Shown piece after piece: positions 3,234-22,099 of a DNA stretch of 35,142 bases. A program made the position numbers and the translations under genes. Where the stretch lies: the IMG/VR virus record IMGVR_UViG_2526164668_000014; one strand, written 5' to 3'. Under the pieces are notes generated by a model. It was not told the DNA's origin, made no database searches, and worked only from the letters and a program-made list of their open reading frames with translations. How positions within the stretch are numbered: the stretch's first letter is position 1; each line of letters begins with the position of its first letter. The DNA is from a virus (Duplodnaviria; Heunggongvirae; Uroviricota; Caudoviricetes).

Positions 3234-4980
3234 AATGTCCCCAGACAATTCTCTGGGGGATTTTTCATGATCAAAGAGACTGTTACGATGAGTCATAAGG
3301 AACTCCACCGACTTCAGATTATTCAGGAGTCAATTAATCGACATATTACTCAGGAACAAGCTGCGGCACGCATTGGCATTTCTATTCGGCAGGTTAAACG
3401 TCTGGTGCAACGGTATAGAAATGAAGGGCCTTCTGGTCTGGTTTCCCACCGACGTGGAAAGCGTCCTAATAATTCCTTTTCTACTGAATTCAGAGCAACA
3501 GTAATTTCACTCCTCAAAGGCCGTTACGCTGATTTTGGACCTACGTTTGCGTGCGAAAAATTGCGCGAGATACACGGTTTATCTTTATCCGTTGAAACTC
3601 TCAGAAAGTGGATGATAGAAGAGGGGTTATGGCGTGAACGCCGTCGTAAAATTGCCCGTATATATCAACGCCGCATGCGACGACCATCTTACGGTGAACT
3701 GATCCAGATTGATGGCTCACCTCATGACTGGTTTGAAAATCGAGGCCCCAGATGTACACTGATCGTTTTCATTGATGATGCCACCAGTGCGTTGATGGCG
3801 TTGCGTTTTGTGCCTGCTGAAACAACCCGGGCTTACATGGAAACCCTCCGGGGTTACCTTAATGATCATGGCGTACCGCTCGCTCTCTACTCTGATAGAC
3901 ACAGTATATTCAGGGTAAATAACCCAGAGCGGGAAGGTGAGCTGACCCAGTTCACTCGTGCGATAAAGACACTGGGCATCGAGCCAATCCATGCCAACAG
4001 CCCGCAGGCAAAAGGGCGGGTAGAGCGCGCCAATCAGACACTACAGGACAGGCTGGTCAAAGAAATGTGGCTTCAGAATATCAGTGATATTGAAACAGCA
4101 AATGCATGGTTGCCGACCTTTATTGAAGCCTATAACAACCGGTTCGCTACGTCGCCTCGTACTACTGATAATGCTCATCTTGATGTGCACCATTCTGAAG
4201 AGGAACTGGGTTATATCTTCAGCCTACAGGCGAAGCGCGTTCTGTCTAAAAATCTCACTTTCCAGTACAAAAGCAGTGCGTTTCAGGTACGCAGTGAGGG
4301 CCGGGGATATCGACTTAGGCATTCGGTTGTTACTGTATGTGAGAACTTTGACGGTGAAATTAACGTTCTGTATGACGGGAAAGCGCTGGGCTGGGAAAAG
4401 TATGTTGATGGCCCGGAGCCTATACCACTGGATGATGAAAAGAGTGTCCATGAACGAGTGGATAATGCCCGTATTGATTTACGCTCAAAATACTATGTTA
4501 AATCTAAAGCTGACCATCCCTGGCCTACGCGCCGAACGCAAAGTCATCAGCAAGTTAAGCCCCCGAAGTTACCTAAAAAGAAGCCTGATCCCGATAAAAT
4601 AGATTGAAACCAAGATCGATTCGGTTGAGTGCATATCCATTCATAGGGTAGATTCTTAAGTCGCGTTTCTGGTGTTCATTTTCGGGTGGTTTGTTACTTG
4701 TTTTACCGGGGATATGCCAGAAACGCGCTGAGTCAGTCTGGGCGGTGCGCGTAATGAGGCGTTATGGTAAATAGCCTATGCTAATGTCCGCTAAGAGCAA
4801 GAAGCGGAAGTTGGCAGTTTTGTGGACTGTCCCCACAAAAGTGACTACAGAAATAGTTGCAATTCATAATTGATCATGGGTTGTCAGTTAAACTCGTGGC
4901 GATTTAAATAGACTAATTGGGAGTGCGTCCATTACTTATATCTTGTAATGTTAACTATCAGAAATGATACAAAGATAATA
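3200..4980 (+). mobile_element. Insertion sequence carrying the DDE transposase (termini not resolved)
   Basis: Transposase flanked by about 370 bp of non-coding DNA before the flxA terminator; imperfect 20-bp palindrome CCCCAGACAATTCTCTGGGG at 3239-3258. Confidence 0.35.
3267..4607 (+). CDS. DDE (rve integrase-core) transposase of a single-ORF IS (IS481/ISNCY-like)
   Basis: 446 aa; N-terminal HTH; candidate D-D-E residues in IQIDGSPHDW, YSDRHSIF and GRVERANQTLQDRL. Confidence 0.8.
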   Translation: MIKETVTMSHKELHRLQIIQESINRHITQEQAAARIGISIRQVKRLVQRYRNEGPSGLVSHRRGKRPNNSFSTEFRATVISLLKGRYADFGPTFACEKLREIHGLSLSVETLRKWMIEEGLWRERRRKIARIYQRRMRRPSYGELIQIDGSPHDWFENRGPRCTLIVFIDDATSALMALRFVPAETTRAYMETLRGYLNDHGVPLALYSDRHSIFRVNNPEREGELTQFTRAIKTLGIEPIHANSPQAKGRVERANQTLQDRLVKEMWLQNISDIETANAWLPTFIEAYNNRFATSPRTTDNAHLDVHHSEEELGYIFSLQAKRVLSKNLTFQYKSSAFQVRSEGRGYRLRHSVVTVCENFDGEINVLYDGKALGWEKYVDGPEPIPLDDEKSVHERVDNARIDLRSKYYVKSKADHPWPTRRTQSHQQVKPPKLPKKKPDPDKID

Positions 4981-7476: not shown

Positions 7477-8526
7477 GTGCGGGTATTACTTAGACCTGTT
7501 CTGGTGCCTGAGCTTGGGCTGGTGGTCCTTAAGCCGGGCCGTGAATCCATACAGATATTTCATAATCCTCGAGTGCTGGTGGAACCGGAACCAAAAAGCA
7601 TGCGTAATCTGCCATCCGGAGTCGTTCCTGCCGTTCGCCAGCCGCTGGCGGAAGACAAAACATTGCTGCCGTTTTTTAGTAACGAACGGGTGATTCGTGC
7701 TGCTGGCGGCGTTGGCGCATTGTCCGACTGGCTATTACGTCATGTTACATCCTGCCAGTGGCCTAATGGCGATTACCATCACACTGAAACAGTCATTCAC
7801 CGTTATGGTACCGGCGCAATGGTGTTGTGCTGGCACTGCGACAACCAACTGCGTGACCAGACATCGGAATCACTGGAGCTGCTTGCTCAACAAAATCTGA
7901 CAGCATGGGTGATTGACGTCATCCGTCACGCAATAAGCGGTACGCAGGAGCGGGAATTATCTTTGGCTGAATTATCCTGGTGGGCGGTCTGCAATCAGGT
8001 GGTGGATGCACTACCTGAGGCTGTATCGCGTCGTTCGCTGGGATTACCAGCGGAAAAAATCTGCTCGGTGTACCGCGAAAGCGACATCGTACCGGGAGAG
8101 CAGACCGCCACCAGCATATTGAAACAACGCACAAAAAATCTTGCACCGTTGCCTTACGCCCACCAGCAACAAAAATCACCACAGGAAAAGACGGTGGTAA
8201 GCATCACCGTTGATCCAGAGTCTCCGGAATCTTTCATGAAGCTGCCTAAACGTCGCCGCTGGGTTAAGGAGAAATACACACGTTGGGTTAAGACACAGCC
8301 GTGTGCTTGCTGCGGTATGCCAGCCGACGATCCGCATCATCTGATTGGTCACGGGCAGGGCGGAATGGGAACAAAAGCACATGATCTCTTTGTGTTGCCT
8401 TTGTGCAGAAAGCATCACAACGAGCTGCATACGGATACAGTGGCATTTGAAGATAAGTATGGCTCCCAACTGGAGCTGATATTTCGTTTTATCGATCGCG
8501 CGCTGGCAATTGGCGTACTGGCGTAA
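7477..8526 (+). CDS. ydfU: YdfU (DUF968) protein with HNH-like Cys/His motif
   Basis: GTG start after GGAGGT; 349 aa; motif PCACCG...DDPHHLIGHGQ...CRKHHNELH. Confidence 0.85.
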   Translation: MRVLLRPVLVPELGLVVLKPGRESIQIFHNPRVLVEPEPKSMRNLPSGVVPAVRQPLAEDKTLLPFFSNERVIRAAGGVGALSDWLLRHVTSCQWPNGDYHHTETVIHRYGTGAMVLCWHCDNQLRDQTSESLELLAQQNLTAWVIDVIRHAISGTQERELSLAELSWWAVCNQVVDALPEAVSRRSLGLPAEKICSVYRESDIVPGEQTATSILKQRTKNLAPLPYAHQQQKSPQEKTVVSITVDPESPESFMKLPKRRRWVKEKYTRWVKTQPCACCGMPADDPHHLIGHGQGGMGTKAHDLFVLPLCRKHHNELHTDTVAFEDKYGSQLELIFRFIDRALAIGVLA

Positions 8527-8539
8527 GTGGAGAACGAGC

Positions 8540-9292
8540 ATGAACCTTGAAGCCTTACCAAAATATTACTCCCCAAAATCTCCAAAATTGAGCGATGACG
8601 CTCCAGCGACAGGCACCGGTTGTTTAACAATTACGGATGTAATGGCAGCGCAGGGGATGGTGCAGTCGAAAGCACCACTTGGGTTGGCCTTATTTCTGGC
8701 AAAAGTTGGTGTTCAGGACCCTCAGTTTGCGATTGAAGGCCTGCTAAATTACGCGATGGCACTGGATAACCCGACATTGAACAAATTGAGTGAAGAAATC
8801 CGGTTACAGATTATTCCTTACCTCGTGAGTTTTGCCTTTGCTGATTACTCCAGGTCTGCGGCAAGTAAGGCTCGCTGTGAGCATTGTTCAGGTACGGGAT
8901 TTTATAATGTATTGCGCGAAGTGGTGAAACACTACAGACGCGGGGAATCTGTAATCAAGGAAGAATGGGTGAAGGAACTATGTCAGCATTGCCATGGTAA
9001 GGGCGAAGCCAGCACAGCGTGCAGAGGGTGTAAGGGTAAAGGGATTGTTCTGGATGAAAAAAGAACCCGGTTTCATGGCGTACCGGTATATAAGATTTGT
9101 GGGCGTTGTAATGGAAACCGGTTTAGTCGTTTACCGACCACGCTGGCACGACGTCATGTCCAGAAGCTGGTACCAGACCTGACCGATTATCAGTGGTATA
9201 AGGGGTATGCGGACGTCATTGGTAAACTGGTAACAAAGTGCTGGCAGGAAGAAGCATACGCGGAAGCGCAATTGAGGAAGGTGACGAGATAA
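8540..9292 (+). CDS. quuQ: Late-gene antiterminator Q
   Basis: 250 aa MNLEALPKYYSPKSPKL...; Cys-rich zinc-binding region CEHCSGTG...CQHCHGKG...CRGCKGKG. Confidence 0.9.
   Translation: MNLEALPKYYSPKSPKLSDDAPATGTGCLTITDVMAAQGMVQSKAPLGLALFLAKVGVQDPQFAIEGLLNYAMALDNPTLNKLSEEIRLQIIPYLVSFAFADYSRSAASKARCEHCSGTGFYNVLREVVKHYRRGESVIKEEWVKELCQHCHGKGEASTACRGCKGKGIVLDEKRTRFHGVPVYKICGRCNGNRFSRLPTTLARRHVQKLVPDLTDYQWYKGYADVIGKLVTKCWQEEAYAEAQLRKVTR

Positions 9293-11712: not shown

Positions 11713-11716
<4 letters not shown>
11405..11716 (+). CDS. ydfR: YdfR (DUF1327) protein between holin and endolysin
   Basis: 103-aa ORF tightly packed between essQ and the lysozyme gene. Confidence 0.8.
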
Positions 11717-12740
<1,024 letters not shown>

Positions 12741-14312: not shown

Positions 14313-14744
14313 TTAGCGTGGTAAGATCTGTGTAGTTTTCTGGATGCTTTCAGTAATTTTCTGGATGCTTTCAGTAAATAGTAATGAGTTATCAAAGGCA
14401 TAGTAATATCTTTGGTGTTCCTGGATATTTGTAACCCATCGGAAAACTCCTGCTTTAGCAAGATTTTCCCTGTATTGTTGAAATGTGATTTCTTTTGATT
14501 TCAACTTATTATAGGAGGTCTCTATAAGATGTTTGTTTCTGGAGAATTTAACATTTACGACCTTTTTGAGTCCTTTTACTAACACTATGTTGTCGTTTTC
14601 TAACACAATGTGAATATTATCTGTGGCTAAATAGTAAATATAAAGTGAGACATTGTGACGTTTTAGCTCAGAATAAAATAATTCACAGTTTAAATCTTTA
14701 CGCACTTGATCGAATATTTCTTTAAAAATGGCAGCCTGAGCCAT
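14313..14744 (-). CDS. ydfO: YdfO (DUF1398) protein with a 7-codon C-terminal duplication
   Basis: [33 protein letters not shown]...; 143 aa versus a remembered 136 aa for K-12. Confidence 0.85.
14336..14377. repeat. Perfect 21-bp tandem duplication inside ydfO
   Basis: TTTTCTGGATGCTTTCAGTAA occurs twice in tandem, encoding [14 protein letters not shown]. Confidence 0.9.
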
Positions 14745-15044
14745 TGGTAAACCTTCCATGTGATACGATGGCGCGTAGTTAGCATTATCGTGTTTATTGT
14801 TTCAATCTGGTCTGACCTCTTTGTGTTTTGTTGATGATTTATGTCAAATATTAAGCCTGTTTTTAATGAATAGTGTTGATTGCGTAACAAAATTGAGCCT
14901 TGCTGGCATCCAGGAGGGATATGCAACCGACAGATGTATGTAAGGTCGATGTACTCAAACTTTCATACTTTTCCTCTTTTATGCAGTAAGATTTGAAGTA
15001 ATATTTTAACCGCTAGATGACGAGCAAACGCATGGAGCGACAAA

Positions 15045-15251
15045 ATGAATAAAGAACAATCTGCTGATGAACTCTCGTTGGATGTGATTCGTGTAAAAAA
15101 TATGCTTAATAGCACCATTTCTATGAGTTACCCGGATGTTGTAATTGCATGTATAGAACATCAGGTGTCTCTGGAAGCATTCAGGGCAATTGAGGCAGCG
15201 TTGGTGAAGCACGATAAGAATTCGAAGGATTATTCCCTGGTGGTTGACTGA
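15045..15251 (+). CDS. Hypothetical small protein (YnfO-position ORF)
   Basis: 68-aa [26 protein letters not shown]... Confidence 0.5.
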
Positions 15252-15271
15252 GCACCATAACTGCTAATCAT

Positions 15272-15439
15272 TCAAACTATTTCACCTGTGACAGAGTCAA
15301 TATCGCATTCTGTCACTGTCAGGCTAATACAGAGCTGCAATTCAACTACTGCAATGTCCTCGTAATTAGGTGAATTTACAATATCGTCCTGTTCGGATGC
15401 CGGTTGCATTGCTGAAGATGAGGCATTTATGGTTCGCAT
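15272..15439 (-). CDS. Candidate 55-aa ORF convergent with the previous gene
   Basis: Hand-translated MRTINASSSAMQPASEQDDIVNSPNYEDIAVVELQLCISLTVTECDIDSVTGEIV; SD-like GAGGGG before the ATG. Confidence 0.3.
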   Translation of the reverse strand: MRTINASSSAMQPASEQDDIVNSPNYEDIAVVELQLCISLTVTECDIDSVTGEIV

Positions 15440-15627
15440 ATTTTCCCCTCATGCTCGTCAGTCCTGTGCGTAGGAAGAAACAGGACACTCACACTAATTT
15501 GTGTGGGCATGCTGTGATGTCCTTCTGAATTATTCCTATGCCATTATGTAAAGCGCTGTATCAGATGCTCATCACGGCTGTCAGGCTGTCAGGCTGTCGG
15601 GTCCTCCCGGTGGGGGCCCCTGCCACG

Positions 15628-15639
15628 GGGCGGGAGCGT
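15628..15639. other. Candidate cosN cohesive-end site
   Basis: ACG-GGGCGGGAGCGT-CGCGG, GC-rich with partial dyad symmetry, resembles remembered lambda cosN GGGCGGCGACCT in its CGCGG context; about 175 bp upstream of the terminase small subunit. Confidence 0.5.
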
Positions 15640-15813
15640 CGCGGAAAAAGGCTAGTTTTTGAAATTTCATCCGTCATCACCACTACTGTAATAGATTGAT
15701 ATTACAGTATTTTTATTTTTGTGGTGTCGATTTTGATTGTTTTTTGTTCATCACTAACACCGTTTGCCTAAAGTCGTTCGCAAGATGCATGTTTAAAACA
15801 TTCTGGAGCGGGT

Positions 15814-16308
15814 ATGGATCGAGAGTTAAAAAATCTGACGCTGAATATCAGTCAATTGGCGGCACTGTCAGGTGTACATCGCCAGACTGCTGCGGCAAGG
15901 CTGCAAAATCTACCCGTTGCAGGGGGGCATGAAAGCAACCTCAAGCTTTATCGGGTGGTTGATATTGTGTCGGCATTTCTGGCATTACCACCGCCGGTTG
16001 CAGAAGGCGAAATGGACGCACATGAGCGCAAAGCCTGGTATCAGTCTGAACGTGAGCGTCTTAAGTTCGAACAGGAAACGGCACAACTCATTCCGGCCAG
16101 TGATGTCAGACGGGAGTTTGCCATCTGGGCAAAAGCGGTCGTGCAGGTGCTGGAGACATTACCGGATATTCTTGAACGTGACTGCGGTCTGCAGCCTGCC
16201 GCTGTGAGCCGTGTTCAGTCCATTATTGATGATCTGCGCGATCAGATAGCCCTGCGGGTGACTGAAGCAGGTGCGGATGATGAGGAGGAATTACAGCAGG
16301 AGGAGTAA
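15814..16308 (+). CDS. Terminase small subunit (Nu1/NohA-like)
   Basis: 164 aa; N-terminal HTH (LNISQLAALSGVHRQTAAARL), acidic C-terminus; stop overlaps the large-subunit ATG. Confidence 0.85.
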   Translation: MDRELKNLTLNISQLAALSGVHRQTAAARLQNLPVAGGHESNLKLYRVVDIVSAFLALPPPVAEGEMDAHERKAWYQSERERLKFEQETAQLIPASDVRREFAIWAKAVVQVLETLPDILERDCGLQPAAVSRVQSIIDDLRDQIALRVTEAGADDEEELQQEE

Positions 16309-18410
16309 TGCTGAATCAGGAAACCGCAAAGGCAGCACGAACCGATTCAGGTTATATCCTTCGCGCACCGAGACGAATGCGGGTTGCTGATGCCGTTGCT
16401 CAGTATATGCGGGTGCCCATGGGGGCAGGGAACTCAGTCCCGTGGGATCCGCTGGTGGCACCGTATGTTATTGAGCCTATGAACTGCCTGGCCTCGCGTG
16501 AATACGACGCAGTGATATTTGTTGGCCCGGCACGAACCGGCAAGACTATCGGCCTGATTGACGGCTGGGTGATTTACAACGTGATTTGCGATCCTGCTGA
16601 TATGCTGATCATTCAGATGACGGAGGAAAAAGCCCGCGAACACTCCAAAAAACGACTCGCCAGAACGTTTCGCGTCAGCCCGGAAGTGGTCAGTCGCCTG
16701 AGTCCGAACAAAAATGACAACAACGTTTATGACAGAACATTCCTTGCTGGCAACTACCTGAAAATCGGCTGGCCGTCAGTCAATATCATGTCTTCATCAG
16801 ATTATAAATGCGTGGCGCTGACGGATTATGACCGTTTTCCGGAAGATATTGATGGTGAGGGGGATGCCTTCTCTCTTGCCTCAAAACGTACCACCACATT
16901 TATGTCCAGTGGTATGACGCTTGTGGAGAGTTCCCCCGGCAGGGATGTGAAGGATGTGAAATGGCGACGGACTTCACCGCATGAGGCTCCACCAACCACG
17001 GGGATCCTGTCGCTCTATAACCGTGGCGATCGCCGTCGCTGGTACTGGCCCTGTCCACACTGTGGTGAGTATTTTCAGCCCTGCGGCGATGTGGTTGCTG
17101 GTTTCCGTGATATTGCCGATCCTGTGCTGGCAAGTGAGGCGGCTTATATTCAGTGTCCTTCCTGTTCAGGACGGATTTTGCCTGAACAAAAACGCGAGCT
17201 GAACGGACGTGGGGTCTGGTTACGGGATGGTGAATCCATCAATGCAGATGGCAGTCGTTATGGTGATCCCCGGCGTTCACGTATTGCGTCATTCTGGATG
17301 GAGGGTCCGGCAGCTGCTTATCAGACACTCTCGCAACTCGTTTACAAACTGCTTACTGCAGAACAGGAATACGAGACAACCGGAAGTGAAGAGACACTCA
17401 AGACGGTTATCAATACCGACTGGGGATTACCTTATCTTCCCCGCGCCAGCATGGAGCAACGAAAAAGTGAATTGCTTGAGCAGCGGGCAGAGCCAGTTCC
17501 TTCCCGCAGTGTGCCGGATGGCGTTAATTTCCTTGTGGCGACAGTGGATGTGCAGGCGGGACGTCATCGCCGTTTTGTGGTTCAGGTAACGGGCTATGGC
17601 AGCCGTGGCGAACGCTGGATTATTGATCGTTACAACATCACGCAGTCATTGCGCGGTGACAGCGACGGGGAGAGCCAGCGAATTGATCCGGCCAGCTATC
17701 CGGAAGACTGGGATGTCCTGCTGACGGATGTTTTTCATAAAAGCTGGCCGCTGGCCTCCGCCCCTTCTCAACAAATGCGACTGATGGCAATGGCGGTGGA
17801 CTCCGGCGGTGAAGACGGGGTCACTGATAATGCCTATAAATTCTGGCGTCGTTGCCGTCGTGATGGCCTTGGTAAACGTATTTACCTGTTTAAGGGCGAC
17901 AGCATCCGGCGAGCAAAACTGATCACCCGTACATTCCCTGATAACACCGGACGAACGGGCCGACGGGCGCAGGCCGCAGGTGATGTGCCGCTCTGGCTTC
18001 TTCAGACGGATGCCCTGAAAGACCGGGTGAATAACGCGTTATGGCGTGACTCGCCAGGTCCCGGCTATGTGCATTTCCCTGACTGGCTGGGGAGCTGGTT
18101 TTACGACGAACTGACGTATGAAGAGCGGAGCAGTGACGGGAAATGGAGTAAGCCGGGTCGCGGTGCCAACGAAGCTTTTGACCTGATGGTGTATGCCGAG
18201 GCTCTGGTCATTCTGCATGGATACGAAAAGATCCGCTGGCCGGATGCACCGGAGTGGGCGAGCCGGGAAACCTGGCTGGAGTGTGTCCCGGACAGTACCG
18301 AACCGTCACCCTCACCGGAACCGGTACCCACGCCTGTTAAAAAACAAAAACGGAAGAAAACAGTAACTGACGATGTTAACCCCTGGCTGACTTCCGGAGG
18401 ATGGTTATGA
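16308..18410 (+). CDS. Terminase large subunit (gpA family)
   Basis: 700 aa; Walker A-like GPARTGKT; Cys cluster CPHCGEYF...CPSCSGRI. Confidence 0.9.
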   Translation: MLNQETAKAARTDSGYILRAPRRMRVADAVAQYMRVPMGAGNSVPWDPLVAPYVIEPMNCLASREYDAVIFVGPARTGKTIGLIDGWVIYNVICDPADMLIIQMTEEKAREHSKKRLARTFRVSPEVVSRLSPNKNDNNVYDRTFLAGNYLKIGWPSVNIMSSSDYKCVALTDYDRFPEDIDGEGDAFSLASKRTTTFMSSGMTLVESSPGRDVKDVKWRRTSPHEAPPTTGILSLYNRGDRRRWYWPCPHCGEYFQPCGDVVAGFRDIADPVLASEAAYIQCPSCSGRILPEQKRELNGRGVWLRDGESINADGSRYGDPRRSRIASFWMEGPAAAYQTLSQLVYKLLTAEQEYETTGSEETLKTVINTDWGLPYLPRASMEQRKSELLEQRAEPVPSRSVPDGVNFLVATVDVQAGRHRRFVVQVTGYGSRGERWIIDRYNITQSLRGDSDGESQRIDPASYPEDWDVLLTDVFHKSWPLASAPSQQMRLMAMAVDSGGEDGVTDNAYKFWRRCRRDGLGKRIYLFKGDSIRRAKLITRTFPDNTGRTGRRAQAAGDVPLWLLQTDALKDRVNNALWRDSPGPGYVHFPDWLGSWFYDELTYEERSSDGKWSKPGRGANEAFDLMVYAEALVILHGYEKIRWPDAPEWASRETWLECVPDSTEPSPSPEPVPTPVKKQKRKKTVTDDVNPWLTSGGWL

Positions 18411-18619: not shown

Positions 18620-20127
18620 TGGCAATTCTTGATGATGTGATTGGCGTTTTTTCACCAGGATGGAAAGCGGCAAGGCTGCGTTCCCGTGCGGTGATCCAGG
18701 CTTATGAGGCCGTAAAAACGACGCGGACACACAAAGCCCGACGGGAGAACCGAACTGCCGACCAGTTAAGCCAGTACGGGGCCGTGTCGTTACGTGAGCA
18801 GGCTCGTTACCTTGATAACAACCACGATCTGGTCATTGGTGTATTTGACAAGCTGGAAGAACGGGTGGTGGGGAAAAACGGGATTATTGTCGAGCCACAT
18901 CCGGTATTACGCAATGGGGCCATTGCCCGTGATCTGGCAGCGGAGATACGTACCCGATGGAGTGAATGGTCTGTCAGTCCGGAGGTCACCGGGCAGTTTA
19001 CCCGTCCGATGCTGGAACGTCTGATGCTGCGTACCTGGCTGCGCGATGGTGAGGTGTTTGCCCAGATGGTTTCCGGGCGCATAAACAGCCTGACGCCTTC
19101 TGCCGGTGTTCATTTCTGGCTGGAGGCGCTCGAGCCGGACTTTATTCCCATGACCAGTGATGAGAGCAACAGGCTGAATCAGGGCGTGTTTGTTGATGAC
19201 TGGGGGCGTCCCGAAAAATATCTGGTGTATAAAAGCCGTCCCGTATCCGGGCGGCAGATGGAAACCAAAGAAGTGGATGCAGAGCGAATGCTGCATCTTA
19301 AATTTGTTCGCCGTCTGCACCAGATGCGCGGGACGTCTTTGTTGTCCGGTGTGCTGATCCGCCTCAGTGCTCTGAAAGAGTATGAAGATTCTGAGCTGAC
19401 TGCAGCAAGGATCGCCGCTGCTCTGGGGATGTACATCCGGAAAGGCGACGGACAGAGCTATGAAACGGATGGTAATGACAGCAAGGAGAATGAACGCGAG
19501 CTTACCATTCAGCCAGGCATTATTTACGACGATCTGAAACCCGGCGAAGAAATCGGAATGGTGAAGTCGGATCGCCCCAATCCTAACCTTGAAACTTTTC
19601 GTAATGGTCAGTTGCGTGCCGTGGCTGCGGGCAGTCGTCTGAGTTTTTCCAGTACAGCGCGCAACTATAACGGCACCTACAGCGCCCAGCGTCAGGAGCT
19701 GGTTGAATCTACTGATGGCTACCTGATCCTGCAGGACTGGTTTATTGGTGCCGTCACCCGCCCGATGTACCGTGCCTGGCTGAAACAGGCTGTGGTATCC
19801 GGTGTTATCAGGCTACCCCGCGATCTGGACCGATCTTCACTGTATACCGCGGTGTATTCCGGACCGGTGATGCCGTGGATTGACCCTGTTAAGGAGGCTG
19901 AGGCCTGGAAAATTCAGATTCGTGGTGGAGCGGCGACAGAATCAGACTGGGTACGTGCAGGTGGTCGTAATCCAGATGATGTCAAACGTCGGCGCAAGGC
20001 CGAAATTGATGAAAACCGCAAGCTGGATCTGGTATTTGATACCGATCCGGCCAGTGATAAAGGAGGCAGCAGTGCCGCAACGAAACGACAGGAGCCGCAG
20101 CACACCGACGACCAGTCCGAAGAATAA
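18619..20127 (+). CDS. B: Portal protein (lambda gpB family)
   Basis: 502 aa from MAILDDVIGVF...; positioned between W and the protease/capsid gene. Confidence 0.85.
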   Translation: MAILDDVIGVFSPGWKAARLRSRAVIQAYEAVKTTRTHKARRENRTADQLSQYGAVSLREQARYLDNNHDLVIGVFDKLEERVVGKNGIIVEPHPVLRNGAIARDLAAEIRTRWSEWSVSPEVTGQFTRPMLERLMLRTWLRDGEVFAQMVSGRINSLTPSAGVHFWLEALEPDFIPMTSDESNRLNQGVFVDDWGRPEKYLVYKSRPVSGRQMETKEVDAERMLHLKFVRRLHQMRGTSLLSGVLIRLSALKEYEDSELTAARIAAALGMYIRKGDGQSYETDGNDSKENERELTIQPGIIYDDLKPGEEIGMVKSDRPNPNLETFRNGQLRAVAAGSRLSFSSTARNYNGTYSAQRQELVESTDGYLILQDWFIGAVTRPMYRAWLKQAVVSGVIRLPRDLDRSSLYTAVYSGPVMPWIDPVKEAEAWKIQIRGGAATESDWVRAGGRNPDDVKRRRKAEIDENRKLDLVFDTDPASDKGGSSAATKRQEPQHTDDQSEE

Positions 20128-20140
20128 TTCCTGGTTCAGG

Positions 20141-22099
20141 ATGCAGGCAGGTCACCAGAGTGACGCGGATATTTATATTTATGACGAGATTGGTTTCTGG
20201 GGTGTTACGGCGAAGCAGTTTATCAGTGATCTGAATGCACTGGGCGATATCACCCACATTAATCTCCATATTAATTCACCGGGTGGCGATGTCTTTGAAG
20301 GCATCGCCATTTTTAATGCACTGAAAACACATGGTGCGTCCATTACCGTTTATGTCGACGGTGTGGCGGCGTCAATGGCGTCGGTCATTGCGATGGTGGG
20401 AAACCCGGTCATTATGCCGGAAAACTCCTTCATGATGATTCATAAACCATTTGGCTTTACGGGCGGTGATGCGGAGGACATGCGCACCTATGCCGACCTG
20501 CTCGATAAAGTTGAGGCGGTTCTGTTACCCGCTTATGCACAGAAAACCGGGAAAACCACAGATGAAATTGCTGCCATGCTGGCGGATGAGACCTGGATGT
20601 CCGGTGCCGAATGTCTGGCACAGGGATTTGCTGATCAGGTGACACCAGCCGTTAAGGCAATGGCATGTATTCAGTCAAAACGTACAGAGGAATTTAAAAA
20701 GATGCCGGAATCCATTCGAAATATGATTACTCCGCCACGCAACAGTGCTCCACGCGTACAGGATGATGGACCTGCAGCCTCCCGGACACCAGTGCAGGCA
20801 GCAGCACCCGTGGTGGATGAAAACAGCATCCGTGCGCAGGTCCTGGCAGAGCAAAAAGCGCGTGTAAACGGTATTAATGATCTGTTTGCCATGTTTGGCG
20901 GGCGTTATCAGTCGTTGCAGGCTCAGTGTCTTGCCGATCCTGAATGTTCGCTGGAGCAGGCCCGCGAAAAGCTGTTGAACGAGATGGGGCGCGAGTCCAC
21001 GCCATCCAATAAAAATACCCCGGCTCATATTTATGCCGGTAACGGTAATTTTGTGGGGGACGGGATCCGCCAGGCGCTGATGGCGCGCGCCGGGTTTGAA
21101 AAAACTGAACGTGATAATGTCTACAACGGGATGACCCTGCGTGAATATGCCCGTATGTCACTGACTGAACGTGGTATTGGTGTTTCCAGTTATAACCCGA
21201 TGCAGATGGTCGGTGCGGCGTTCACACACAGTACGTCTGACTTCGGTAATATTCTGCTGGATGTTGCGAACAAAGCCATTCTGCAGGGCTGGGAAGATGC
21301 CCCTGAAACCTATGAACAGTGGACGCGGAAAGGTCAGTTGTCTGATTTTAAAATTGCCCATCGTGTGGGTATGGGGGGCTTCAGTGCTCTGCGTCAGGTG
21401 CGTGAAGGGGCAGAATATAAATACGTCACCACCGGAGATAAACAGGCCACTATTGCACTGGCGACCTATGGCGAGCTGTTCAGTATCACCCGTCAGGCCA
21501 TTATCAATGATGATCTGAATATGCTGACCGATGTCCCGATGAAGCTGGGCCGTGCGGCGAAATCCACTATTGCCGATCTGGTTTATGCCATTCTGACGTC
21601 TAACCCGAAAATCTCCACAGATAATGTAAGTCTGTTCGATAAAGCGAAACATGCAAACGTACTGGAGAGCGCGGCAATGGACGTGGCATCGCTGGATAAA
21701 GCCCGCCAGTTGATGCGCGTTCAGAAAGAGGGTGAGCGTCATCTGAATATTCGTCCTGCGTTCGTACTGGTACCGACGGCGATGGAGTCTGTTGCTAACC
21801 AGGTCATTCGCTCCTCAAGTGTCAAGGGGGCTGACATTAACGCCGGTATTATTAACCCGGTGAAAGATTTTGCGACCGTTATTGCAGAGCCTCGTCTTGA
21901 TGATAACAGCCAGACCACCTTCTACCTGGCTGCGTCCAAAGGCTCCGATACGATTGAAGTGGCTTATCTCAACGGTGTGGATACGCCATATATTGATCAG
22001 ATGGAGGGCTTCAGTGTGGATGGCGTGACAACGAAAGTGCGTATTGACGCTGGTGTTGCGCCAGTTGATCACCGCGGCCTGGTGAAATGTACGGCGTAA
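20141..22099 (+). CDS. Prohead protease (ClpP/S14-like) fused to major capsid protein
   Basis: 652 aa; N-terminal ClpP-like region with GVAASMASVI serine motif; C-terminal region about 330 aa in the major-capsid position; followed by a terminator. Confidence 0.8.
   Translation: MQAGHQSDADIYIYDEIGFWGVTAKQFISDLNALGDITHINLHINSPGGDVFEGIAIFNALKTHGASITVYVDGVAASMASVIAMVGNPVIMPENSFMMIHKPFGFTGGDAEDMRTYADLLDKVEAVLLPAYAQKTGKTTDEIAAMLADETWMSGAECLAQGFADQVTPAVKAMACIQSKRTEEFKKMPESIRNMITPPRNSAPRVQDDGPAASRTPVQAAAPVVDENSIRAQVLAEQKARVNGINDLFAMFGGRYQSLQAQCLADPECSLEQAREKLLNEMGRESTPSNKNTPAHIYAGNGNFVGDGIRQALMARAGFEKTERDNVYNGMTLREYARMSLTERGIGVSSYNPMQMVGAAFTHSTSDFGNILLDVANKAILQGWEDAPETYEQWTRKGQLSDFKIAHRVGMGGFSALRQVREGAEYKYVTTGDKQATIALATYGELFSITRQAIINDDLNMLTDVPMKLGRAAKSTIADLVYAILTSNPKISTDNVSLFDKAKHANVLESAAMDVASLDKARQLMRVQKEGERHLNIRPAFVLVPTAMESVANQVIRSSSVKGADINAGIINPVKDFATVIAEPRLDDNSQTTFYLAASKGSDTIEVAYLNGVDTPYIDQMEGFSVDGVTTKVRIDAGVAPVDHRGLVKCTA

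Follow-up and report, generated by a model that had tools for sequence, protein, structure and literature searches.

Does the GC-rich element directly upstream of the terminase genes in the virus record IMGVR_UViG_2526164668_000014 form part of a cohesive-end packaging site (cos), and which of the sequences around it belong to that site? The window analyzed here is the whole stretch of 35,142 nt, assigned to the Caudoviricetes. A preliminary description of the same DNA had compared the GC-rich element with lambda cosN and had proposed the repeats, the hairpin and the AT-rich stretch around it as equivalents of cosQ and cosB. All four elements were found, within 1-3 nt of the positions given, and the site lies, as described, directly upstream of the genes for the small (terS, 15814-16308) and large (terL, 16308-18410) terminase subunits. 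We consider it very likely that positions 15599-15813 are the cos site of a lambdoid prophage of the mEp460/cdtI/Tritos type, with the layout cosQ-cosN-I2-cosB followed by terS and terL. For this segment we observed directly how the sequence is related to other cos sites, how its parts are arranged and conserved, and to which families the genes belong; the nick positions, the protein–DNA contacts, the role of integration host factor (IHF) and the activity of the prophage are proposed by analogy with lambda. The kind of site is already known, as is the prophage lineage, which is very common.

A set of 80 IMG/VR loci encoding a 100% identical TerS was used to compare upstream sequence families and cosN variation. 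Conservation by column was determined from 67 distinct variants for the I2 block and from 55 variants for the R sites and the palindrome. Positions in bp are counted from the first base of the predicted cohesive end (15628). The features of the site and the two genes that follow it are given below.

15599-15605, plus strand: cosQ equivalent GGGTCCT, 22 bp upstream of the predicted top-strand nick
15626-15641, plus strand: cosN, CG/GGGCGGGAGCGT/CG (slashes, predicted nicks), with predicted 12-nt 5' cohesive ends at 15628-15639
15645-15672 (bp 18-45), plus strand: I2-like spacer AAAAAGGCTAGTTTTTGAAATTTCATCC, with A5 and T5 tracts
15674-15683 (bp 47-56), plus strand: R3 candidate TCATCACCAC, proposed primary TerS-binding site
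15684-15709: I1 equivalent, palindrome TACTGTAATA-N6-TATTACAGTA with perfect 10-bp arms
15689-15701 (bp 62-74), minus strand: IHF consensus TATCAATCTATTA, inside the palindrome
15721-15730 (bp 94-103), minus strand: R2 candidate GTGGTGTCGA (minus-strand reading TCGACACCAC), in the orientation opposite to R3 and R1
15748-15757 (bp 121-130), plus strand: R1 candidate TCATCACTAA
15814-16308, plus strand: TerS, DUF1441 family, 164 aa (Pfam PF07278, E = 2.7e-41)
16308-18410, plus strand: TerL, gpA family, 700 aa (GpA_ATPase; PF05876 and PF20454 are the two Pfam matches)

The cosN core and the cosQ heptamer

The core of the site reads ACG-GGGCGGGAGCGT-CGCGG at 15625-15644, and its likeness to lambda cosN was borne out. 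The 12-mer GGGCGGGAGCGT, which occurs only once in the whole window, is identical to lambda GGGCGGCGACCT at 8 of 12 positions; bp 1-6 are the same, the mismatches are at bp 7, 8, 9 and 11, and the CG pairs flanking both nick positions are those of lambda. Two-fold symmetry extends over 8 of 16 cosN positions in the window, compared to 10 of 16 in lambda. The composite pattern GGGTCCT-N(18-26)-CGGGGCGG-N6-CG matched once in the window and never in 100 dinucleotide shuffles. ACG/GGGCGG, with bp 1-6 invariant, was present in 79 of the 80 loci, the exception (L048) having an altered core, and all cosN differences among those 79 were located at bp 7-12 or in the right flank. Natural variation of cosN in lambda-like phages likewise leaves the left half and the flanking CGs conserved and bp 7-12 free, and cosN of Gifsy-1 differs at bp 8, 9 and 11 (PMC4669245). 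Because bp 1-6 and the flanking CG pairs are as in lambda and the differences fall within the naturally variable half, the GC-rich core is, judged by its sequence, a lambda-type cosN. The nicks are predicted at 15627/15628 on the top strand and at 15639/15640 on the bottom strand. A full-text literature search for the 12-mer returned only unrelated eukaryotic papers.

Lambda, cdtI, mEp213, yong2 and PhiR40_1 share with the window the heptamer GGGTCCT upstream of the core. In lambda it is located at 48473-48479, 23 bp before the nick, and we take it to be the genetically defined cosQ. The right ends compare as ...ACGGGTCCTTTCCGGTGATCCGACAGGTTACG in lambda and ...GTCGGGTCCTCCCGGTGGGGGCCCCTGCCACG in the window. 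The 7-bp cosQ is highly conserved and is required for the termination of packaging (PMC4669245). Upstream of this shared cos the 80 loci diverge into six or more sequence families that are unrelated to each other, and in each family similarity to the window begins exactly at GGGTCCT. A literature search for cosQ together with GGGTCCT found only unrelated papers.

The I2 spacer and a putative complex cosB

Downstream of cosN the A+T content rises to 70.7% (15645-15760), compared to 15% over 15599-15644 and 49.9% in the whole window. The proposal that this AT-rich stretch is a cosB equivalent was upheld, with an I2-like spacer preceding the cosB region. The segment from bp 13 to 40 (CGCGGAAAAAGGCTAGTTTTTGAAATTT) was almost invariant among the 67 variants, and between bp 18 and 45 only bp 41 and 44 were variable at the 10% level. 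The spacer is identical to that of cdtI through bp 33 and to that of Tritos through bp 34, despite the different TerS of those phages. The pattern CGCGG..GGCT.GTTTTT is common to mEp213, yong2, Chris1, Gifsy-2 and Cr-LKS3 and is found more loosely in Fels-1 and lambda (CGCGGGTTTTCGCTATTTATG). Lambda I2 is an essential AT-rich segment of about 33 bp (bp 18-50) with dA/dT tracts and a static bend (PMC4856287); it fixes the spacing between cosN and cosB and is needed together with cosQ and cosN for termination (PMC4856287; PMC4669245).

We searched the interval between cosN and the terS start codon, without bias as to position, for the best direct-inverted-direct triple of 10-mers. In lambda, which served as the positive control, the search recovered R3 at bp 53-62, R2 at bp 111-120 and R1 at bp 155-164, and 0 of 200 shuffles gave a triple as good. 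The following significant triples were obtained for five relatives of the window.

Fels-1: bp 47, 93 and 119, TCATCATC-type, p = 0
Gifsy-2: bp 50, 94 and 121, TCGACACTGA-type, p = 0.01
Chris1: bp 49, 97 and 123, p = 0.02
yong2: bp 49, 97 and 123, p = 0.04
mEp213: bp 45, 96 and 122, p = 0.02

The same search detected no R triple in cdtI/Tritos and Cr-LKS3. In the window the best triple, weak on its own, was formed by the R3, R2 and R1 candidates at bp 47, 94 and 121, in line with the relatives; with the positions fixed beforehand from these five, only 1 of 5000 dinucleotide shuffles was as good. The R3 candidate was identical in 49 of 55 variants and the R2 core GGTGTCGA was kept in 51, the two bases directly 5' of it varying freely; the cores of the R sites, that of R1 included, were conserved among the variants. 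The R sequence changes with the TerS variant, as expected of a specificity determinant: it is TCATCATC in Fels-1, Chris1 and yong2 and TCGACACTGA in Gifsy-2. The position of R3 in the window (about bp 47-56) is similar to that in lambda (50-65), and R3 of N15 is placed at bp 48-60 in the literature. An enrichment of the R core TCRWCACYA in the window (6 occurrences against 2.3 expected, three of them in cosB) was discarded as not independent, the motif having been derived from the same sites.

Only one exact match to the IHF consensus WATCAANNNNTTR was found in all 35 kb of the window; it is located between R3 and R2, and it was retained in 54 of the 55 variants. The consensus was found with 0-1 mismatch, on the same strand and at bp 61-76, in PhiR40_1, mEp213, Chris1, Fels-1, cdtI and Tritos; in the last two it still stands at bp 64-76, and in lambda the I1 region has its IHF score at bp 79-91. 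Of the features by which Feiss and colleagues define a lambda-like cos, the locus presents the cosN pattern, flanking CGs, cosQ at the conserved spacing, an AT-rich I2 with R3 about 47-50 bp from the nick and an adjacent gpA-family TerL; the lambda I2 and R3 values used here are those of PMC4856287 and PMC9026076. The putative R sites add the marks of a complex cosB: there are three repeats, of which R2 is inverted, and the IHF consensus separates R3 from R2. We propose that the downstream region is a complex cosB of the form R3-I1-R2(inverted)-R1, to which protein binding is predicted; this form has been described for lambda, 21, phi80 and Gifsy-1 (PMC9026076).

Among loci with 100% identical TerS, bp 57, 66, 67, 82, 83 and 94 (within 15684-15722) were highly variable and their neighbors invariant. 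These columns are located at the ends of the palindrome arms, in its loop and just 5' of R2, and could reflect either relaxed constraint or diversification around I1.

The terminase subunits

The TerS protein matched PHROG 141 ('terminase small subunit', E = 7e-74), and DUF1441 was its only Pfam match. The gene had been called Nu1-like in the preliminary description. BLASTP detected no similarity between TerS and lambda Nu1. An alignment of the two with hhalign was collinear end to end, with a probability of only 5.8%, and placed the N-terminal LNISQLAALSGVHRQTAAARL segment of TerS on what is presumably the N-terminal helix-turn-helix (HTH) region of Nu1. No meaningful match to TerS was obtained from the PDB, whether by sequence or by profile. 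An AlphaFold 2 (AF2) model of TerS computed with an alignment had a pLDDT of 79 and an N-terminal strand-helix-helix-wing-helix arrangement; the single-sequence AF2 model was discarded (N-terminal region pLDDT 44-68). When the former was compared with the PDB using Foldseek, the top match was 6HN7 chain B (E = 0.038), followed by MerR-type winged-HTH proteins. From its length of 72 residues we take this chain to be the lambda TerS(1-98) fragment. TerS is not a member of the Nu1 family by sequence, and its model suggests that it resembles Nu1, only weakly, at the level of fold. The term Nu1-like can be kept for the position of the gene and, weakly, for the fold of its product, and has to be given up for the sequence.

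TerL matched GpA_ATPase (E = 1.7e-71) and GpA_nuclease (E = 1.5e-85). It shares 25% identity with lambda gpA over 623 residues (E = 6e-19) and 87% identity with the TerL of Tritos. Terminases of the gpA family are associated with 5' cohesive ends. The similarity to the Tritos protein (comparison locus L001, 799-2829) is unevenly distributed: identity is 73-85% over residues 24-383 and 97-100% over residues 384-700. The divergent N-terminal half goes together with a different TerS and a different cosB, as would be consistent with terS, cosB and the part of TerL that interacts with TerS being exchanged as one unit.

Comparison with known cos sites

The site shares with lambda the GGGTCCT heptamer, the flanks ACG and CGCGG, bp 1-6 of the cohesive end, an A/T-tract spacer, the direct-inverted-direct order of the R sites, an IHF consensus between R3 and R2, and a gpA-type TerL encoded immediately downstream. 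It differs from lambda at cohesive-end bp 7, 8, 9 and 11 and in the distance from cosQ to the nick (22 bp, compared to 23 bp in lambda). The R sites are of TCATCAC type in the window and of CGTTTCC type in lambda, and the two types are unrelated. The cosB of the window is more compact, with R1 at bp 121-130 instead of 155-164, its I1 is embedded in a perfect palindrome, and its TerS is a DUF1441 protein without detectable Nu1 sequence similarity.

The records of the E. coli phages cdtI and Tritos are laid out with the homologous site at their ends. The linear Tritos record (OV696610) starts with GGGCGGGAGCGTCGCGG and ends with ...GGGTCCTCCCGGTGGGGGCCCCTGCCACG, which corresponds to window 15599-15627; the cdtI record (NC_009514) starts exactly at GGGCGGGAGCGT and ends, like that of Tritos, with ...GGGTCCT..CCACG. 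Both phages have the same GGGCGGGAGCGT, flanks and cosQ heptamer as the window and the same I2 through bp 33 (cdtI) or 34 (Tritos). Their TerS is only about 42% identical to that of the window, and cosB diverges from about bp 34-45. Tritos is prophage 3 of strain LF82; it forms plaques and has been imaged by electron microscopy (PMC9928086). The linear record of Hafnia phage yong2 starts at CGCGG after its own 12-mer and ends with that 12-mer. For cyanophage Cr-LKS3, whose TerS is 40% identical to that of the window, an experiment has placed 5' cohesive ends at the corresponding site, where GGGCTCGCG precedes CGG (PMC9303873).

Phages mEp460, mEp460_4F5, Ayreon, phi458 and vB_EcoS-569R4 have 99-100% identical TerS and the same cosQ-cosN-I2-cosB. 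The viable phage mEp460 (TerS 99.4% identical) differs by G instead of T at bp 12 (GGGCGGGAGCGG) and has a variant R1, and the upstream, right-end module is of another sub-type with fewer GGCTGTCA copies. The cos site is unannotated in the published records of mEp460 and its relatives, and the authors of the Ayreon report only predicted cos packaging, from TerL phylogeny (PMC5764929). The virion-derived record of mEp460_4F5 (LR595868; comparison locus L003, 1-30) has its first base 5 nt ahead of the predicted nick (CCACG), and 3 nt of cosN are missing from it (GGGCGGGAG---CGCGG). The most likely cause is faulty assembly at the physical cohesive ends, in which case the record constitutes indirect evidence for DNA ends at cos.

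A wider group, mEp213/LLS, Fels-1, Gifsy-2, Chris1 and yong2, has TerS of the same DUF1441 family, the cosN-I2 block, and R3-I1-R2-R1 geometry within about 3 bp of the window. The right halves of the cohesive ends differ in these five, and at the position of cosQ Fels-1, Gifsy-2 and Chris1 have GGTACTCC, compared to GGGTCCTCC in the others. A putative cohesive end of mEp213/LLS, GGGCGGCGCGCT, has been discussed previously (PMC12315714). In Gifsy-2 (comparison locus L090) the interval from ...CCACG to CGCGG is 14 nt (GGTGGCTTCGGGCT) instead of 12 and is without the GGGCGG left half; either cosQ and cosN have diverged in the Gifsy-2/Fels-1/Chris1 sub-lineage or the Gifsy-2 cos is degenerate.

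The 'simple' cos of N15 and the cos of the phage-inducible chromosomal island (PICI) EcCICFT073 have a lambda-like cosQ and cosN with conserved spacing, and in N15 and PICIs cosB is replaced according to the DNA-recognition protein (PMC4669245, PMC9026076, PMC6739421). N15 differs from the window in having a single R site and no IHF site, and PICIs differ in using Rpp-TerS heterodimers. The element in the window is a phage and not a PICI, because its cosB is complex and tripartite and its head and tail module is that of a complete phage.

Alternative explanations

Three observations weigh against the identification of 15599-15813 as an active lambdoid cos site. The R triple of the window was not significant in the unconstrained search alone (p = 0.54). 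Analogy with lambda may itself have determined where the Tritos and cdtI records start, the basis for the choice of record ends not being stated in the Tritos/LF82 paper (PMC9928086). The early region of the window contains an insertion sequence (IS)-type transposase ORF (3267-4607) right after the O-like gene, so this copy of the prophage may be disrupted or defective. An intact cos in a defective or cryptic prophage, cut at most in trans by the terminase of a related helper phage, is unlikely in our judgement, with a chance that deserves to be taken into account. A search of 5426 complete E. coli genomes found related cos regions in 2109 of them, with as many as 7 in a single genome, and many such prophages are defective. 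Against this stand the full-length terS, terL, adaptor, portal and capsid ORFs of the window and the near identity of its cos region to those of viable phages (mEp460; 4F5, 98.3%; phi458, 98.1%). The cos region is 100% identical to that of many other genomes, and a 391-bp stretch around it is unchanged in several E. coli chromosomes, including those of O157:H7 strain 493/89 and of the bovine strains C7 and C3. A defective copy would in any case bear on the activity of the site and not on its identity. That the phage packages by the headful (pac) mechanism and resembles lambda at cosN by coincidence is so improbable that we give it almost no weight: nothing was found in its favor, TerL has both the ATPase and the nuclease domain of gpA, the composite cosQ and cosN pattern did not occur in shuffles, and related phage records have the homologous site at their ends.

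Two other alternatives concern single elements around the core. The preliminary description had assigned the role of cosQ or cosB to the GGCTGTCA repeats and to the GTCCTGT/ACAGGAC hairpin, which we regard as very improbable. Both are real and located directly upstream of cosN. The inverted repeat occupies 15461-15467 and 15480-15486, and the repeats at 15576-15599 consist of two exact copies of GGCTGTCA and one GGCTGTCG, the last overlapping the first G of GGGTCCT. Both, however, are confined to one upstream family and absent from at least five others that have the same cosQ-cosN-cosB and an identical TerS. The number of GGCTGTCA copies varies among relatives from about 1.5 (GGCTGTCAGGCTGA) to 4, a variation seen also in 4F5, and the hairpin is as stable as expected by chance (z = -0.56; 55 of 200 shuffles folded at least as well). 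The canonical GGGTCCT is present at the lambda distance, lambda cosB is located downstream of cosN and not upstream (PMC4669245), and the hairpin sits in the leader of a conserved minus-strand ORF (15439-15272, phrog_4035). Because they were found in only one of at least six upstream contexts, the repeats and the hairpin are, by their distribution among the loci, part of a variable right-end phage module and not elements of cos. The palindrome at 15684-15709 could serve mainly as an operator for a dimeric protein, or as an RNA hairpin of the late transcript running through cos into terS, and not as an IHF site, and we consider this improbable. Its 10-bp arms are perfect, it folded with z = -4.7 (0 of 200 shuffles as stable), and a few changes are paired, so that the arms stay complementary (in 9 variants TA has become CG at bp 57/82, and there are several G-T combinations). 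To our knowledge, lambda I1 is not a palindrome. Most of the variation, however, is at the arm ends and in the loop, several variants break pairs, and the covariation is too weak and mixed to support an RNA structure. What is retained is the IHF consensus, and it recurs at the same position in phages without the palindrome. An Rfam search gave only a chance-level hit. The IHF role of I1 and a role as hairpin or operator are not mutually exclusive. A promoter and terminator scan of 15200-15850 found no terminator and a single weak promoter-like site, a yield not exceeding that of shuffled sequence; therefore neither the hairpin nor the palindrome is an intrinsic terminator.

Further observations were made on the sequences upstream of cosQ. 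The phrog_4035 ORF (15439-15272, minus strand, E = 1e-41) is conserved, encodes 55 aa and has a good Shine-Dalgarno sequence, GAGGGG. Its region is 86% similar to lambda 47996-48090, an unannotated part of the lambda right end. Read along the minus strand, the hairpin precedes the Shine-Dalgarno sequence and ATG of this ORF by 14 nt, and in relatives its arms are kept while the loop varies in length (G-runs); it belongs more plausibly to the leader of the ORF. In lambda, mEp213, cdtI and several of the IMG/VR upstream families another palindrome is located 5-8 bp upstream of cosQ: GCAAATGATAATCATTATCATTTGC in mEp213 (comparison locus L092, 524-537), GATGATAATCATTATCAC in lambda (48453-48466; comparison locus L006, 954-967), and 46972-46985 in cdtI (comparison locus L096, 373-386). 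It resembles a Fur box. The window is without this palindrome, and its upstream module has the GGCTGTCA repeats instead.

Proposed packaging mechanism

By analogy with lambda, dimers of the DUF1441 TerS would bind to R3 and to the inverted R2 on concatemeric DNA, across a bend made by IHF at I1 and assisted by the flanking T-tracts. The bound TerS would anchor the gpA-type TerL on cosN, and TerL would nick both strands there, the top one behind G15627 and the bottom one 12 bp further right. The left end of the virion DNA is accordingly predicted to start with 5'-GGGCGGGAGCGT and the right end to carry the complementary 5' overhang 5'-ACGCTCCCGCCC. The terminase would stay on the end bearing cosB and dock on the portal, and the DNA would be translocated rightward, beginning with terS and terL and continuing with the genes for head and tail. 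The terminating cut would be triggered when the next cos arrives, by its GGGTCCT (cosQ) in combination with cosN and I2.

A possible mosaic structure of the site

The comparisons suggest, as a tentative reading that we hold to be possible and somewhat short of probable, that phages with a DUF1441 TerS keep the lambda R3-I1-R2-R1 geometry of cosB to within about 3 bp despite different R sequences and a TerS without detectable sequence similarity to Nu1, and that cos is a three-part mosaic with sharp recombination joints. One joint of this mosaic would be located exactly at the left edge of cosQ, where at least six unrelated right-end modules are attached. The other would be located at the I2/R3 boundary (about bp 34-45), with the TerS-specific cosB, terS and the N-terminal half of terL being swapped jointly. 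Such a mosaic, if real and undescribed, would add modestly to what is known of the natural history of cos sites. The understanding of cos packaging itself is unchanged. The value for annotation is that the site fixes the genome ends and the packaging direction of a very common class of E. coli prophages, shows which flanking sequences fall outside cos, and gives coordinates of cosQ, cosN, I2, R3, I1, R2 and R1 for terminases with a DUF1441 small subunit. It could aid in predicting which helper phages package which prophages, PICIs and cosmids.

Prophage context

A survey of ORFs and domains in the window revealed the gene layout of a lambdoid prophage, in the order Q - lysis - cos - terS - terL - adaptor - portal - protease/capsid - tail. 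The main features outside the cos region are the following.

1754-2773: O-like replication gene
3267-4607: IS-type transposase ORF (phrog_8463, E = 5e-137), in the early region directly after the O-like gene
8510-9292: Q-like antiterminator
11713-12246: endolysin
12243-12740: Rz spanin
Between Rz and cos, in this order: a gene for a cold-shock protein, a ybcV-like gene (DUF1398; 14313-14759, minus strand) and one resembling ybcW
After TerL: head-tail adaptor, lambda-family portal, fused ClpP-protease/major-capsid gene, tape measure and tail genes
19880-22099: fused ClpP-type prohead protease and major capsid protein domain, a single ORF of 739 aa

The fused ORF at 19880-22099 corresponds to the head arrangement of Gifsy-2 type mentioned in PMC12315714.

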